NCBI GenBank assembly: GCA_951406725.2
Contig: OX597815.1
Location: forward strand, 82,336,001-82,400,000
DNA: 64,000 bases
Reading direction: 5' to 3'
DNA from: Octopus vulgaris
Taxonomy: Eukaryota
Each line of letters begins with the position of its first letter. The stretch's first letter is position 1. Below the pieces are notes generated by a model, which was not told the origin of the DNA, searched no databases, and was given only the letters and a program-made list of their open reading frames with translations. Position numbers and translations under genes: made by a program. Of the stretch, positions 3,859 through 55,997 are shown one piece after another.

Positions 3859-4583
3859 GAAGGCAGTGAGCTGGCAGAATCGTTAGCATACCGGGCGAAA
3901 AGCTTAGCGGTATTTCGTCTGCCTTGACATTCTGAGTTCAAATTCCGCCGAGGTCGACTTTGCCTTTCATCCTTTCGGGGTCGATAAATTAAGTACCAGT
4001 TACACACTGGGGTCGATGTAATCGACTTAATACCTATGTCTGTCCTTGTTTGTCCCCTCTGTGTTTAGCCCCTTGTGGGTAATAAAGAAATAGGTATTTC
4101 GTCTGCCTTTTATCCTTTCGGGGTCGATAAATTAAGTGCCAGTTACGCACTGGGGTCGATGTAATCGACTTTATCCCTTTGTCTGTCCTTGTTTGTCCCC
4201 TCTGTGTGAAGCCCCTTGTGAGTAGTAAAGAAATAGGTATTTCGACTGTCTTTGTGTTCTGAGTTCAAATTCCGCCAAAGTTGACTTTTCCTTTTATCCT
4301 TTCGGAGTCGATAAATTAAGTACCAGTTGCGTACTGGGGTCGATCTAATTGACTGGCCCCCTCCCCAAACATTTTGTGCCTTGTATCTAGAGTAGAAAAA
4401 TAAAAATAAAGGCTTAGCGGTATTTCGCCCGTGTTTACGTTTTGTGTTCAAATTCTCCCGAGATCGACGTTGCCTTTCATCCTTTCGGGATCGATAAAAT
4501 AAGTACCAGTGAAACACTGGGGATCGATGTAATCGACTCTTCCGCGCCCCCAGAATGATTGCCCTTGCGAAAAAATTTGAAAC
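3859..4583 (+). mobile_element. Tandem array of SINE family A (one head plus four bodies)
   Basis: Head aaggcagtgagctggcagaatcgttagc with B-box-like gagttcaaattcc and core gcctttcatcctttcggggtcgataaattaagtacc. Bodies restart at ggtatttcg at 3909, 4093, 4236 and about 4419. Confidence 0.9.
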
Positions 4584-4720
<137 letters not shown>

Positions 4721-12274: not shown

Positions 12275-12671
12275 CTAGCAGTATCGCCCGGCGTTGCTCG
12301 GGTTTGTAAGGGAAATAACTATAAAGCATTTTTAGAGAGTTATAGCCAAAAAATAGCAAAAAAATGCATTAAAAATGGAAAAAAAATGATGGTAAATTTT
12401 TAAAAAAATCGTTGACTAATCGTAGACATTTTTAGAGAGTTACTTCCCTTATATAATAGAGAAAAAATGCATTAAAATGGAAAAAAATGATGGTAAATTA
12501 TTTTTAAAATCGTAGACTGATCGTAGACGCGCGCTAATACCCAGAAGGGCTCGATATGAATCACGACTATAAGATACCCGGTTTTGGTTAAACTGCACCG
12601 CAAAATGTGGGAGTAGTTAGGAATCTAAATCGTAGGAGACAGACACACAACCTTACTTTTATATATAAAGA
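12275..12671 (-). mobile_element. Non-autonomous Helitron-like element
   Basis: Minus strand begins TC (a|tctttatatataaaag) and ends with the hairpin cccgagcaacgccggg followed by CTAG|t. Inserted between A and T with no TSD. Carries an internal imperfect duplication of about 100 bp (catttttagagagtta...aaaaaatgatggtaaatt). Confidence 0.8.
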
Positions 12672-21489: not shown

Positions 21490-21709
21490 TCTTTTCTTTT
21501 CTACTCTAGGTATAAGGCCCGGAATTTTGGGGGAGGGGGCCAGTCGATTAGATCGACCCCAGTACACAACTGATACTTAATTTACCGACCCCGAAAGGAT
21601 GAAAAACAAGTCGACCTCGGCGGAATTTGAACTTAGAACGTAAAGATAGACGAAATACTGCTAAGTATTTCGCCCGGTGTGCTCACACTTATGCTAGCTC
21701 GCCGCCTTA
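21490..21709 (-). mobile_element. SINE family A, within a cluster of diverged partial copies (about 21130-22030)
   Basis: Reverse complement aaggcggcgagctagc...ttcaaattccgccgaggtcgac...atcctttcggggtcggtaaattaag. Confidence 0.85.
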
Positions 21710-22299
21710 CAAGGCCAGCAATAGTGAGGAGAGGTATAGTCGGTTCGATCAATCCCAGTTCTGTACAAGTTCTTACTTTATCTATCTGGTAAGGATGAAA
21801 GCCAATGCCGGCCTCGAGAGTATTTGAACTAAGAACGTAAGCCATTTTGTGCGGTGCTCTAGCGAGCCTGTCAATCAGTTACTCTTTAATATTTCCGATT
21901 TAAACACAAAGCCAGTACCTTCGAGGTGAGTGAAGTTAGACGATTACATCAACAACGCTACTCATCGACCCTGGGGATATAAAAAGCAGAGATGAACTCG
22001 GCGGGGTTTTCGCGTTAAGAGTCAGAAGAAATACCTTCAGGGATCTGGTCCGAATTCTCCTACGATCCAGGAGTAGGGTGTCGAATGAAGTAAAATTACA
22101 AAGGCAGGTGACGTATGACGTAAAGTGTGAAACTTTATATAAAATCAGATGAAGAAAAAGGGACTTAAAAGTATACTAAGTATAAATACATCGTATTTAA
22201 ATACTGCCAATTAGGTCCAATCAGAGAGCTCCAGAGATACAAGACCACAATGACACTAAGGACAAGTGTTCTACCCAACCTGTTGCCTTCCGAAATACA

Positions 22300-22679: not shown

Positions 22680-23283
22680 CATTTGCCACAATAATCGACC
22701 TGCTGACATTTTCCCTGGGAAGGGATTTTTCTGTCCAACCTCACCCACTTTCCAACTGGAACTTGAAAAATACAATGAGGGTCAACCAAAGAGGAAATGT
22801 TCTAGACATTTCATCCTCATGTACCACACATCACCTTTCATCAAAGCCACCAGAGAAATATCGGCTTCTCTACCGATTATCAGCAACCTGCAGAGTAGTT
22901 TCAAGATGGACTCGATTAATAAACGGATCTGTCTTATTTCGTAAGAAAAACATCACAAATCAGCAAATAACAGATTTCGATCGAATGAGTACCCAACAGT
23001 TTCGTCCCTCAATGCGCATCTGAGGTATTCCCTGCCTGAGATTACCTGCATTTCTGAAGAGTTTATCTTGGCTCAGCTCTGGGAGAGAGTAACAGAAAGG
23101 CACGCCTTACCGTCTCTTCTTGACGGGGAACGGAGACCACATCAAATGACTATCAACATTTCTGCAGATGGCGCTGCTTGGGAGCAGGCCATAGAATGCT
23201 ATGTCTGCCTTGCAGAACGCATTTGGCAGCAGATTGACAGCTTGATCAGTGCATGGCATCCCTTCCACAGGAAGCAGATCTGA
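22680..23283 (+). mobile_element. Decayed RTE-like LINE 3' remnant
   Basis: Translation ...EFILAQLWERV...ADGAAWEQAI loosely matches the RTE C-terminal PK.IL.GQL...A.DR..WR pattern; many disruptions. Confidence 0.35.
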
Positions 23284-27969: not shown

Positions 27970-28400
27970 AGGCAGCGAGCTGGCAAAGTCGTTAGCACGC
28001 CGGACAAAACACTTACTGGTATTTCATCCGACTTTACGTCCTGAGTTCAAACTCCGTCGAGGTTAACTTTACTTTTCATCCTTTCGGGGCTGATAAAATG
28101 AGTAATAATCGAGCACTGGGGTGGGTGATGTAATCGACTTACTCACGTCCCTCAAAATTGCTGGTCTTGTGCCAAAATTTAAAACCATAAAGCAACGAGC
28201 TAGCAGAACCGTTAGCACCAAGGAAAAATGCTTAGCGGTATTTCGTCTATATTTACCTCCTGAGTTCAAATTCCGAGGTCGACATTGCCTTTCATCTTTT
28301 CGAGGTCGATAAAATAAGTAACAGTTGAGCACTGGCGTCGATGTAATTGCCTTACCCACGTCCCTCAAAATTTCTGGCTTTATGCCAAAATTAGAAACCA
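27970..28400 (+). mobile_element. Two head-to-tail SINE family A copies
   Basis: ggcagcgagctggcaaagtcgttagcacg and agcaacgagctagcagaaccgttagc, each with core and gccaaaatt tail. Confidence 0.85.
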
Positions 28401-28929
28401 ATTTTACAGTCTACTGTTTTTAAGAAAGAGAAGGAAATGTAAGAAGCAAAACCAAGTAAAAAAGAAAAGTACTGACTGAATAATCATTGACGCAATGGCT
28501 TTGATCATAAATCCACCTGGTCACAGTTGGTCTAGGATTAAACCACAACAACAGCAACAAAATCAAAATCGAATATAACAAACCAACAATGCCAGACCTA
28601 GCACTAAACGATACTACTACTACTACTACCTGTATTGCCACAAATATCACTGGCTAGAACAAATTTCCAGTCAACACAACTGAATAATACCAAATGTGAC
28701 ACCAATATCAGCGCCGTCGCCATCACTTACGACTAACCATGCTAGCACACCAGCAATAACGAAGTGTAGAATGCCAACCGAACTAAACAGTACCAGATGT
28801 GATACCAAAGCCACTAATACTGTCATCATACGTAACAAACACAACAAATAATAGCCAGGAATTTCTTCCGTGACTGTAAAAACCACTACCATAAATATCA
28901 CCTCCAGCATCATCATAACAAATATTAAC

Positions 28930-33610: not shown

Positions 33611-33689
33611 ATGAAAAGCAAACTTGTAGATTTCAGCGGTCCAGCATGGGCAATACACACACACACACACACACACACATACATATATC

Positions 33690-33873
33690 TATTTCTTTAC
33701 TACCCACAAGAGGCTAAACACAGGGAGGACAAGCAAGGACAGACAAACGGATTAAGTCGATTACATCAACCCCAGTGCGTAACTGGTACTTAATTAACCG
33801 ACCCCGAAAGGATGAAAGGCAAAGTCGACCTCGGCAGAATTTGAACTCAGAACGTAAAGACAGACGAAATACC
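33690..33873 (-). mobile_element. Headless 184-bp SINE family A unit fused to a LINE 3' end
   Basis: Minus strand ggtatttcgtctg...gcctttcatcctttcggggtcgg...agcctcttgtgggtagtaaagaaata; same length and endpoints as the units at 3909-4092 and 40593-40776. Confidence 0.9.
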
Positions 33874-35095
33874 AATTTCTTTATTGCCCACCAGGGGCCA
33901 AAGATAGAAACGGATAGAACAACTGATGGGATCAGTGAAGCGATATGATTTTACATATAATGTGACTTTAAAAATTTAAATACAATATGTAAAAAATCGA
34001 ATAGAATTAACAATACAGAAACAATACAAATGAAGCGATGACCAGGCCACGCTCCGACCCCACAAGCCCCGATCTACCGCTGGTCTCTTTTTTTTCCGTC
34101 TATTCACACGGTTCCTTGCACGCACAACACTCGTGCAACATGCTTCCATCTCTTTTGGAACGTACACTCCGACAGACACCTCTTCTCCAGTCACAGCTTC
34201 CTTTTCAAATGAAAAGAAAAAAAGATCGTAAATTCTGACCAGAGATAAAGTTGCCTGTCTTAATTCCTTTTATACTGCCTCTTTTGCTATTGCTACAACC
34301 GTGAGAAAACAATTCTTACCTTCGTTCGTTAGAACTCCCGGTGGGTCAATTTTTATAATTGACTCAGTCGACAGCTGTATTCTTCCTTCGCCGGACAACA
34401 GGTGTTCAGCATAAGCCCACATTTTAGTTATCTCCGGACACTGAACAATAGCGTGAGGGACGGTTTCCCTGTACCCACCACATCTTGGACAGGTCGGCGA
34501 CTGACGTTTACCATGTCTTGCGAGCTTATCCCAAACGGACCAGGTTAAGGACTTTTGGAAGTTGTCCAACGTTCTCAACCCGATTGAACGGTGAAACAGG
34601 CTGTCCAGTTGAATAAATCCGAGACCTAGAGTCGACCCCAGGCCATCCTCGCATTCTGACTCTACCAACCCACTATATAAAATACGTGTGGAACCCCCAC
34701 CACTGGCGTTGCCCGAGCGCCGGAATAGCAAGAGGGCCTTACGGCACTCTTTATGCCACTCACTCAACCTCGGTCTACGAGAACACCAGGCTTCCTGTTC
34801 GCAAAAACTTTTGAACTCAGGGAACATTTGTCTGGCCAGCGGGGACCACACCCGTTCACTATCCAGGAGAATCCAGAGGTGCCTCAACCTTAACGCATGT
34901 CTGCGCATCATTAACCAAGGATCCCTAAACCTCCCTTTAAAGGTTTTTGACAGCAGACAGAGCGTTTCACAAGTGGTGACCTGCCCTTCCACAAAAAGCG
35001 AAAGAGCTGTTTCTCCAACCTGATCAACCACGAATCCGGACAGGGCACGACGGTTAGGCGGTAGGTACTGACCGAAGCGATAAACACATTGGCCA
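33874..35095 (-). mobile_element. 5'-truncated L1/Tx1-clade LINE: ORF2 C-terminus (frameshifted) plus 3' UTR
   Basis: LEKQLFRFLWKGRSPLVKRSVCCQKPLKGGLG and the zinc-knuckle CPRCGGYRETVPHAIVQC are typical of L1/Tx1 ORF2 C-termini. The reading frame ends at about 34100 and the UTR ends ggcccctggtgggcaataaagaaatt. Confidence 0.85.
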
Positions 35096-35522
35096 TTATC
35101 ACAGTTTATTAACTCTTCCTTACAGCATGATTACTACTTGTTAAAAGTAATGACAAATTTTTTCAGCAATTATTTTTGTATACGTAGAAGCTGTGTTCTT
35201 AATGGTTTTTAGATAACCGTTTGTATAGCTTTTCGAAGCTCTCTAACAGAAAACTGATAAGGTATTTATATGTACCCATGGATTTTCATTTTGTACTCCT
35301 TCTAAGGATTCTTTTACTAAGTACTGACAACCGTCACTCGAGAGTGAATATTGTTCAGTACAATGTCTTCACTCATTGTTTTAGGTACCTATGTAGTCGC
35401 GAACAGACATAGGTAGCTTCTCGGTATATCGCCCTTGACACAGTGGAATATCCAAAATCTTACAGGTGTAGGGATAGAGAGAAAGAAAGAAAGAGAGAGA
35501 GAGAGAGAAAGACAGGCCGACA

Positions 35523-35637: not shown

Positions 35638-35805
35638 AGCCTAGTACCCGGCTGGCTCTCATTACGTGACTGGTATACAGTTTTATTAATTTCTGAAGAA
35701 ATAAAGTTGACATCGACGGGATTTGAACACAAGATGTAAAGAGCCGGAGCACACATCGTAAGGCAAGTTGCTCTATTTTAATTATTCTCTCGTGTACAAC
35801 ATTTG

Positions 35806-40360: not shown

Positions 40361-40972
40361 AGGCAGCGAGCTGGCAGAAGCGTTAGCACGCCGGGCGAAA
40401 TGCGTAACCGTATTTCGTCTGCCGTTACGTTCTGAGTTCAAATTCCGCTGAGGACGACTTTGCCTTTCATCCTTTCGGGGTCAATAAATTAAGTACCAGT
40501 TACGCACTGGCGCCGATATAATCGACTTAATCTGTTTGTCTGTCTTTGTTCGTCCCCTCTGTGTTTAGCCCCTTGTTGGTAGTAAAGAAATAGGTATTTC
40601 GTCTGCCGCTACATTCTGAGTTCAAATTCCGCCGAGGTCAACTTTGCCTTTCATCCTTTAGGGTTCGATAAATGAAGTACAAGTTACGCACTGGTGTCGA
40701 TGTAATCGACTTAATCCGTTTGTCTGTCCTTGTTTGTCCCCTCAATGTTTAGCTCCTTGTGGGCAATGAAGAAATAAGAATCGTTAGCATGCCGAGCAAG
40801 ATACGTAGCAGTATTTCATCCAAATTCTCATTTTGACTTCAAATTCCACCGAGGTCGATTTTGACTTTCATCCATTCGGTGTCGATAAAGTAGGTACCAG
40901 TTGAACACTGGGGTCGATATAATCGACCTACCCCTCCCCGAAATTGCTGGCCTTATGCCAAAATCTGAAATC
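40361..40972 (+). mobile_element. Tandem array of SINE family A (three bodies)
   Basis: Head aggcagcgagctggcagaagcgttagc; restarts at ggtatttcg (40593) and agaatcgttagc (40777), each after an aagaaata tail. Confidence 0.9.
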
Positions 40973-41564
40973 AATATTGCTGATAACAGTAACAGCAATA
41001 AAAAGAATATAATTATGATAATATTGCATACACAAGAGCAAATAGGATAGAAACAGTACCATTGCGATCCAAGAACTACAATATTAAGACCACCGTCAAC
41101 GCTACTACCAACAACGCCATCAGCACCACCATCAAAATAATATCGTCGACGACGGTGTCCACGAACGTAGCACCACGTCCACCAGCAGCACCGTGATTTC
41201 TCTAAAGGCAAAACTGCACTCTTTGAAGTGGAATTTCGTCAAAATCACGAATGATCCATTGTCGCTTTGAATTAACGCCTACTTAATCTGTATTAGTCTT
41301 CGTTTGGCAGCCATAACCCCAAAATGGCGACGGGATTAAGTCCATGTATGTACAAAGTTATATATCTATAGCTATGTAGATAAATAGATAGACAGACAGA
41401 TAGATATAATGCATGTATAAATATACACTAACATATATGTGTGAATATGTTTGGGTATACATGTCCATCTATCTTTCTCTCTCTCTGTATATATATATAT
41501 AACTTTGTTCGCATGTATACATATAGATATGTATGTATGTATATACATATATACAGATAAGTAA

Positions 41565-43208: not shown

Positions 43209-43253
<45 letters not shown>

Positions 43254-43419
43254 ACAGTTATCGCCATACTAATATGGCATTCTTATAAAAATAAGAAGAA
43301 AGCTGTCCGCTTATTAGCTCCATGAGGCCATCGCCTTAAGTTAGCTATTTGATACACAAACTGTATCCATATAACCTTCGAACAAGGGAGGTCAGTCGCT
43401 CCACACTACTTGAGCGGCA

Positions 43420-43461
43420 GCTACAGACGCGTTTCAGGGTATTGCCCCTTTTCAATGCAGC
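43420..43461 (-). ncRNA. Minimal type I hammerhead ribozyme (U3-A8), copy 1
   Basis: Reverse complement gctgca TTGAAAA gggg caata ccct GAAA cgcg TC tgtagc. Confidence 0.75.
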
Positions 43462-43781
43462 GTAGCCAGCCAGTAGGTGTCGCTTCCGACAATCTCTGTT
43501 CGATGGTTTTATTTACCTAGTTTCGGTGGAATACATCCACTTGTTTTCAATAATAGAAATATTAAAATAACTAAGTCTCTCTAAAAGAGAACAGCGGCAG
43601 CGTTCCCGGAAAATAATAGTTATCGCCATACTAATATGGCATTCTTATAAAAATAAGAAAAAAGCTGTCCGCTTATTAGCTCCATGAGGCCATCGCCTTA
43701 AGTTAGCTATTTGATACACAAACTGTATCCATATAACCTTCGAACAAGGGAGGTCAGTCGCTCCACACTACTTGACCGGCA

Positions 43782-43823
43782 GCTACAGACGCGTTTCAGG
43801 GTATTGCCCCTTTTCAATGCAGC
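43782..43823 (-). ncRNA. Minimal type I hammerhead ribozyme (U3-A8), copy 2
   Basis: Identical to copy 1, 362 bp away. Confidence 0.75.
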
Positions 43824-44248
43824 GTAGCCAGCCAGTAGGTGTCGCTTCCGACAATCTCTGTTCGATGGTTTTATTTACCTAGTTTCGGTGGAATACATCC
43901 ACTTGTTTTCAATAATAGAAATATTAAAATAACTAAGTCTCTCTAAAAGAGAACAGCGGCAGCGTTCCCGGAAAATAATAGTTATCGCCATACTAATATG
44001 GCATTCTTATAAAAATAAGAAAAAAGCTGTCCGCTTATTAGCTCCATGAGGCCATCGCCTTAAGTTAGCTATTTGATACACAAACTGTATCCATATAACC
44101 TGTATCCATATGCCGCTGTTCTCTTTTAGAGAGACTTAGTTATTTTAATATTTCTATTATTGAAAACAAGTGGATGTATTCCACCGAAACTAGGTAAATA
44201 AAAACATCGAACAGAGATTGTCGGAAGCGACACCTACTGGCTGGCTAC

Positions 44249-44290
44249 GCTGCATTGAAAAGGGGCAATACCCTGAAACGCGTCTGTAGC
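44249..44290 (+). ncRNA. Minimal type I hammerhead ribozyme (U3-A8), copy 3
   Basis: gctgcattgaaaaggggcaataccctgaaacgcgtctgtagc; predicted cleavage after C44284. Confidence 0.75.
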
Positions 44291-44610
44291 TGCCGGTCAA
44301 GTAGTGTGGAGCGACTGACCTCCCTTGTTCGAAGGTTATATGGATACAGTTTGCGTATCAAATAGCTAACTTAAGGCGATGGCCTCATGGAGCTAATAAG
44401 CGGACAGCTTTTTTCTTATTTTTATAAGAATGCCATATTAGTATGGCGATAACTATTATTTTCCGGGAACGCTGCCGCTGTTCTCTTTTAGAGAGACTTA
44501 GTTATTTTAATATTTCTATTATTGAAAACAAGTGGATGTATTCCACCGAAACTAGGTAAATAAAACCATCGAACAGAGATTGTCGGAAGCGACACCTACT
44601 GGCTGGCTAC

Positions 44611-44652
44611 GCTGCATTGAAAAGGGGCAATACCCTGAAACGCGTCTGTAGC
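44611..44652 (+). ncRNA. Minimal type I hammerhead ribozyme (U3-A8), copy 4
   Basis: Identical to copy 3; predicted cleavage after C44646. Confidence 0.75.
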
Positions 44653-44872
44653 TGCCGCTCAAGTAGTGTGGAGCGACTGACCTCCCTTGTTCGAAGGTTA
44701 TATGGATACAGTTTGTGTATCAAATAGCTAACTTAAGGCGATGGCCTCATGGAGCTAATAAGCGGACAGCTTTTTTCTTATTTTTATAAGAATGCCATAT
44801 TAGTATGGCGATAACTATTATTTTCCGGGAACGCTGCCGCTGTTCTCTTTTAGAGAGACTTAGTTATTTTAA

Positions 44873-44939
<67 letters not shown>

Positions 44940-55350: not shown

Positions 55351-55699
55351 AAGCCTGTCGCGAACAGCTCATATGGTGGTGAAACTCAAAATAGACTGTC
55401 AAGTTTTGATATAATAAACATATCTTTTGACTGTACCCAACGTATGGAATTCTGCATTAGATTATCTTTGCACAGTAAAAATATTCTTTTAATACTCTGT
55501 ACAACTCTACGTTGTACGTACTGTATGTGTGAGAGAGCATAAGTGAGAGTAGAGAGGCAAGTTTTGTCTAGTGGATGTTTTAAAAAAAGATGGGTGAATG
55601 TAGCAAGGATGGCACGTATGAATGACGAAGCCACCTTGACTATGATCCTATGAACCGTAAAAATTAATACAGAGTTGCTTATTTGTAAAAAAATATAAC

Positions 55700-55997
55700 A
55701 TGTGACTTCATTGACCGAGGTTACCGTGGTCTTTTCCGTAGGCTTTTCTTTCCACGGGTAAACCTCACCTGTCATCCCCTTTACACTTTATATTGACATT
55801 TCTGTGATAACGATCCCTATTGATCGATTTTTTTCCTTTTATTTTTATCCCCCCCTTTTTTTGCTTTCCTCTTTCTTTCCTTTTACGATCCTTTTTGATC
55901 GAAAACCAAAACCCTTTTTTTATCTCCAAAAAGAAAAGCTCTACCTTATAATTTGTCCCGTCTGTATGCAGCCCTGTGTGGCTAATAAAGAAACATA
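55700..55997 (+). mobile_element. Probable 3' UTR of a Tx1-like LINE, ending at (ATCT)n
   Basis: Pyrimidine-rich segment ending tttgtcccgtctgtatgcagccctgtgtggctaataaagaaacata, similar to the LINE end at 33874 and to the SINE A tail. Confidence 0.5.

Follow-up and report, generated by a model that had tools for sequence, protein, structure and literature searches.

A 5'-truncated Tx1-like LINE of Octopus vulgaris ends directly on an internal base, nt 48, of a tRNA-type SINE, and tandem copies of the same SINE restart on this very base. From the sequence we consider it fairly probable that the LINE family nicks nt 48 of a SINE sharing its 3' tail, and that the copy described here was moved together with a downstream SINE remnant. 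All features lie in one stretch of 64 kb, the window, which is AT-rich (GC 36.5%) and microsatellite-dense; ARAGORN detected no tRNA genes in it, and no Rfam matches were obtained at gathering score. In the SINE numbering, nt 1 is the G that opens the head at 3862. The head carries a box A-like motif at 3872 and a box B-like motif at 3936, and the landmarks used below are AGAATCG for nt 15 and GGTATTTCG for nt 48. A, B and C denote three tail types found on a common head and core (26 profile matches in the window), and X1-X4 denote contigs from four public runs, whose summed depth does not equal copy number. Coordinates are collected in Table 1.

Table 1. Positions of the LINE, SINE and flanking features in the window
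Feature	Position	Strand	Basis or remark
5'-truncated Tx1-like LINE (C-terminal part of ORF2 and 3' UTR)	33874..35096	-	tblastn with octopod-lineage ORF2 proteins
zf-RVT zinc-binding motif of ORF2	34417..34539	-	Pfam PF13966, residues 125-165 of P0001
Common tail of the LINE, the second LINE remnant and SINE A	33875..33922	-	small hairpin, AATAAA-like motif, AAAGAAA
Headless SINE A unit, nt 48 to end, 184 bp	33690..33873	-	87-91% identity to other A units
GATA, 5' copy of candidate 4-bp target-site duplication	35097..35100	-	immediately outside the LINE 5' end
GATA, 3' copy of candidate duplication	33686..33689	-	after the passenger tail; then TATG/TG microsatellite
Second LINE remnant, same lineage, other subfamily	55542..55993	+	tblastn; not inside a SINE
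CATA/CATA, exact 4-bp duplication around the second LINE	55538-55541 / 55994-55997	+	same bracket pattern
SINE stack of three: head with A unit; A unit from 4093; C-tailed unit from 4236	3862..4400	+	both restarts at nt 48
SINE stack of three: head with A unit; A unit from 40593 (nt 48); B-tailed unit from 40777 (nt 15)	40361..40985	+	profile and alignment

The LINE and its junction with the SINE

On the minus strand the junction at 33874|33873 reads ...ggcccctggtgggcaataaagaaatt|ggtatttcgtc. The 3' end of the LINE thereby abuts nt 48 of the SINE, between boxes A and B, and the headless SINE unit that follows keeps box B, lacks box A and runs into gatatatgtatg(tg)n. A preliminary description of this DNA had placed the LINE end directly on the position where SINE A restarts, and this is exact: the base is the same as at 4093, 4236 and 40593. 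The window holds nine exact copies of GGTATTTCG, five after a normal head (ttagc|) and four after an A-type tail, the latter being these three restarts and the LINE locus. By a loose count, a random end would fall on SINE nt 48 in the sense orientation with a probability no higher than about 2e-4 per base. A SINE head at the 5' end of the LINE was found neither in the sequence nor by the SINE profile search, as had been described before; the closest profile matches lie at 35659-35762 (a weak fragment) and from 36020 onwards (a complete B-tailed copy). The 5' limit of 35095 drawn earlier had to be shifted, ORF2 homology beginning at 35096.

In tblastn the ORF2 homology extends from there to about 34107, interrupted by frameshifts and stops, and the proteins P0158, P0155 and P0162 align to the LINE with 47-71% identity and E values down to 4e-79. 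The putative zinc-binding motif in P0001 scores 22.5 bits (E=1.9e-4), under the cut-off of 27.5. P0001 shares 54% identity with P0002, which carries RT, and the representative of the P0158 cluster is 91% identical to P0002. No endonuclease domain was found in the window copy, which comprises the C-terminal part of ORF2 only; APE, RT and zf-RVT are all present in the lineage proteins P0158 and P0162. With P0158 the score is 340 bits for Xenopus Tx1 ORF2 (P0288), 175 for human L1 and 81 for R2, a result by which the Tx1 affinity proposed earlier is supported and the LINE may be classed as Tx1-like. Named near relatives of its protein come from Argonauta hians. Since the window LINE is only 50-71% identical to P0158, the two probably represent different subfamilies.

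The LINE is multi-copy, with a summed depth in X1 of 1.4e3-1.2e5 compared with 55 on the unique flank. This depth drops at about 35090-35130, near the 5' end of the LINE, and the filled 5' junction is identical in all four runs X1-X4. SINE-body contigs dominated these data, and among the pieces listed none crosses from the LINE into the SINE. Searches of the genome-contig and viral-contig collections yielded no loci for relatives of P0002 and 0 loci for a tail pattern. The single metagenome match to this pattern (L001) was rejected as a chance match in unrelated DNA.

LINEs have been regarded as sequence-specific when one repeat class accounts for more than 20% of their flanks (PMC4494074). 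For the present subfamily one copy with known 3' flank is at hand, and it lies at SINE nt 48 (1/1). Specificity for nt 48 is thus argued from this one copy together with the low per-base chance, the use of the same base by the SINE and the behavior of the clade.

A shared 3' tail and recurrent SINE restarts

The end of the LINE and the tail of SINE A are identical at 28 of 34 positions. The alignment scores 43, whereas the maximum among 2000 shuffles was 28 and B-tailed SINE copies score 15-16 against the LINE end; once gaps are allowed, the homology spans about 48 nt. Such identity would permit an origin by recombination, in which a tandem SINE array contributed its tail as the final 30-50 nt of an otherwise non-specific LINE, and junctions between a SINE tail and nt 48 are indeed plentiful. 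We nevertheless hold this to be highly unlikely. The LINE end differs from the A tails at letters that these have in common (e.g. cccctGgtggg, final TT), the homology fades into the LINE 3' UTR with no SINE body there, and a second LINE subfamily bears the tail without an adjoining SINE. The remnant of this second subfamily has a tail of the same type, its 3' UTR is barely alignable with that of the first LINE, and it ends at a CATA|TCTA microsatellite. Since it carries the tail with no SINE beside it, and since the first LINE differs from the A-tail letters, we regard the tail as the LINE lineage's own. The earlier suggestion that the shared tail is the LINE's own terminus is thereby borne out, and its proviso that 33874-33900 might be a recombined SINE tail is answered in the negative by the same two findings. 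Besides the first LINE, a single LINE in the window retains its complete end, at 55993. This end is situated outside a SINE, and its tail matches the SINE at least as well as that of the first LINE (alignment scores of 56 and 50), which counts against the main reading.

The remnant at 55542-55993 possibly represents a subfamily that targets microsatellite edges. A third fragment of the lineage, at 22785-23273 on the minus strand, is heavily decayed and has no recognizable tail. The small hairpin in the tail consists of 4 pairs with 25/28 cells paired and is not significant against shuffles (z -1.5 to +0.6); no two-sided changes were found when it was inspected for covariation. The tail ends in GAAAT(A), to which the target bases (T)ATTTC, lying a short way past the nt-48 junction (33874/33873, 4092/4093), are reverse-complementary. 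This complementarity between tail and target comprises 5-6 bp only and is missing at the nt-15 site, and no junction hairpin appeared in two folds of sequence crossing the junction.

Seven A-type tails occur in the window, five on SINEs and two on LINEs. The next sequence is nt 48 in 4/7 cases, nt 15 in 1/7 and (G/C)ATAT followed by a microsatellite in 2/7. A motif search gave 13 tails of type B or C, none of which is joined to nt 48 (0/13; Fisher test against 4/7 A-type tails, p about 0.007, or 0.006 with 14 tails). The nt 15 restart at 40777 falls inside box A (gctggc|agaatcg). Two of the X1 joints listed read as junctions between a tail and nt 15. The unit restarting at 4236 has a C-type tail, and the unit at 4093 measures 143 bp and appears internally deleted. 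Its first 17 nt (4093-4109) equal the start of the upstream unit, after which the sequence jumps by ~41 nt at a TGCCTT microhomology; the unit may be either a target-site duplication plus a 5'-truncated insert or the product of an internal deletion.

These stacks could in principle have grown by local tandem duplication, as an incipient SINE satellite, with the LINE junction arising by chance. SINE-derived satellites do exist in reptiles (PMC10702118), and one neighboring pair, 3909/4093, is 93.0% identical over 143 aligned bases. This value is slightly above that of distant pairs (87-91%) and also counts against the main reading. The other neighboring pair, 40410/40593, however, is 87.0% identical, the lowest value seen, and the terminal units derive from other SINE types. 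Moreover, the same breakpoint recurs at unlinked loci in spite of its low per-base chance. As the pair 40410/40593 is no more alike than distant units and the terminal types are mixed, duplication is disfavored, and in combination with a chance junction we regard it as largely refuted and scarcely credible. Satellites derived from SINEs form long homogenized arrays; here we find 2-3 units with 87-93% adjacent identity and mixed ends. Stacks ending in another SINE type are expected if A copies entered pre-existing SINEs. The proposal of the preliminary description that the SINE inserts into its own family at one site, each time independently, is upheld. In two respects that description has to be amended. 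Instead of homogeneous 184-bp arrays there are short stacks ending in the SINE type of the target (C at 4236, B at 40777), and besides nt 48 the same tail occurs at nt 15 as well as beside microsatellites, at (G/C)ATA|T edges.

Junctions between a tail and nt 48 that carry a SINE-type letter are present in at least 128 contigs in each of X1-X4 and make up, as a rough figure, about 3-6% of the summed SINE-body depth. Because such contigs are plentiful in all four runs, self-insertion of the SINE, as read from these junctions, is not confined to the window.

New targeting would not be needed at each of these loci if a few founder chimeras, produced by template switching or a chance insertion at nt 48, had been copied as read-through multimers with their junctions inherited. 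The T4 terminator is missing in 4/5 A units, so that existing junctions could be propagated by multimers with no further targeting. Amplification of SINEs in dimeric form has been described (PMC10702118), and the LINE locus itself resembles an inherited junction. We consider this course of events unlikely, given that the downstream partners vary (A and C at nt 48, B at nt 15), that LINE and SINE use the same base and that the two full-length heads are of different subtype.

SINEs with B- or C-type tails also form clusters in the window (21490-22052 on the minus strand, 27970-28410 and 4400-4590 on the plus strand). These are arranged head-to-tail by what seems a looser process, and their units begin anew at the start of the head, close to it or at about nt 41, but not at nt 48. 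Among other repeats in the window, 43250-44881 contains two adjoining arrays of a 362-bp unit with 99% identity between TA microsatellites, for which there was no Rfam match and in which a strict CTGANGA motif was not found. A 101-bp tandem repeat of two copies (83% matches, A-rich) lies at 12327-12528.

Duplications around the LINE and the headless SINE

One exact duplication of 4 bp, GATA/GATA, encloses the LINE together with the DNA downstream of it, which is the arrangement looked for in 3' transduction. A 4-bp match at both ends is expected by chance in 0.65% of cases if exact, in 4.3% with one base of slack and in 9.9% with two bases. Because the duplication brackets both the LINE and the headless SINE, and no head is found upstream, co-retrotransposition of the two is favored, with weak to moderate support from the sequence. 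At this strength the earlier proposal of a co-retrotransposed read-through can be maintained. The headless unit is then likely to be the former target of the LINE and its passenger by transduction.

An insertion in situ would explain the locus differently. The LINE could have entered a resident SINE A at nt 48, with the SINE head lost afterwards through a target-site or later deletion. The junction is what such an insertion is expected to produce, target-site truncation is known for elements mobilized by Tx1 (PMC4494074), and with slack the 4-bp match has a chance of 4-10%. On the other hand, the deletion would have to end exactly at a GATA that repeats the 3' flank of the SINE, no fragment of the head remains, and the second LINE displays the same 4-bp pattern. 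Taking both sides together, we assign a low probability to this explanation.

The favored reading, transduction of a LINE that had inserted at nt 48, has its own costs. If the LINE copy was transduced, its nt-48 junction was inherited from the parent locus and does not mark a fresh insertion; the LINE copies at nt 48 number one, and the junction of this one would itself be inherited. It also counts against this reading that the duplications are 4 bp long and lie in AT-rich, GATA-rich DNA.

Proposed mechanism and related systems

In the mechanism that we propose, the APE endonuclease would recognize the region ttagc|ggtatttcg between boxes A and B (gcttagcggtatttcgtc) and prime reverse transcription there, and the RNAs primed in this way would end in the common LINE/SINE tail. 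By means of this tail SINE A would borrow the LINE machinery and land in other SINE copies. Owing to the homology between the two, the inserted A body would join the head of the target without a visible seam, and what is displaced of the target would be left downstream as the headless unit. The parent locus of the window LINE would have had the order head-LINE-headless A, with a transcript running beyond the LINE end as far as the A tail. From this tail, reverse transcription would then have copied 184 + about 1220 nt, about 1.4 kb in all, and the truncated product would have been inserted at a GATA microsatellite edge. SINE A is likely to have several carriers with different targets, namely nt 48, nt 15 and (G/C)ATA|T, since other Tx1 subfamilies bear the same tail; the presence of the tail on a second subfamily outside a SINE speaks against a simple pair of one LINE and one SINE. 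We infer the chemistry of the cut, the nicked strand and the rescue of the promoter.

More tentatively, and with some doubt on our part, the system might constitute a self-feeding loop. The LINE would cut its passenger SINE between boxes A and B, making every SINE copy a landing pad, and incoming cDNA that reaches nt 48 would regain a full Pol III promoter from the target head. One tail would be read by several Tx1 subfamilies with sites at nt 48, nt 15 and microsatellite edges, and the tail of the target would serve as a second priming site from which cassettes of target plus element are exported.

The closest parallel comes from crocodilians, in which Tx1-Mar LINEs and SINEU-3 have a common target in Mariner-N4_AMi and tandem SINEU-3 copies arise by sequential insertion (Kojima 2015, PMC4494074). 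Both systems pair a Tx1-clade LINE with a dependent SINE that shares its target in an abundant transposon, and in both the SINEs stack. Whereas the crocodilian target is a Mariner DNA transposon, in the octopus the tRNA-type SINE family apparently serves as its own target. Octopus units would therefore fuse seamlessly and lose their heads, in contrast to the Tx1-Mar/SINEU-3 units, which are separated by a visible duplication. In our reading the octopus system is a counterpart of Tx1-Mar/SINEU in which the passenger itself is the target. To this the LINE locus adds a probably transduced target and an internal control of one tail with several targets. Other targets reported for the Tx1 clade are Tx1D, U2, microsatellites, LTR and Harbinger elements (PMC4494074). 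Xenopus Tx1L in Tx1D, Keno in U2 snRNA and Kibi and Koshi in microsatellites are likewise APE-type, sequence-specific LINEs of the Tx1 clade, and none of their targets as described in that report is a SINE mobilized by the same LINE (PMC4494074). The position of the second LINE remnant (55542..55993) at a microsatellite edge recalls Kibi and Koshi.

L1 elements give rise to 3' transduction, and R1-type elements co-transcribe target sequence. Target sequence is co-transcribed by R2 as well (PMC4494074). As with L1, R1 and R2, the octopus LINE would have been read through into downstream DNA and copied to a new site within one duplication. Unlike in those systems, the transduced DNA would be the element's own target and would offer a second, putatively functional tail for priming. 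Tandem SINE multimers such as the jerboa Dip/B1 elements and SINE-derived satellites have also been described (PMC10702118). The octopus units are similarly arranged head-to-tail; unlike those multimers and satellites, they restart at one internal base, are unhomogenized and have this base in common with a LINE.

The octopus tRNA-derived SINEs OK, OR1 and OR2 reportedly go back to Ohshima and Okada in 1994, and the SINE of the window probably belongs to the same or a related abundant group. OR1 and OR2 have been assigned to the CORE-SINEs (PMC4824008, PMC4758252). The repeat annotation of O. vulgaris gives 13 recently active L1-Tx1 families and a SINE load of 11.6%, and the words 'target' and 'nested' do not occur in its main text (PMC13282606). 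A search of the openly accessible full-text literature returned no report of a LINE targeting its partner SINE.

If our reading is true, the safe haven of this retrotransposon is the SINE that it amplifies. This would create a positive feedback and could help explain the SINE load of the octopus, and it could also help explain headless or multimeric SINE 'families' that are mis-annotated. Sister subfamilies with one tail and different targets would further constitute a natural series for mapping the residues that determine APE specificity, a matter of relevance to retrotransposon-based gene insertion.
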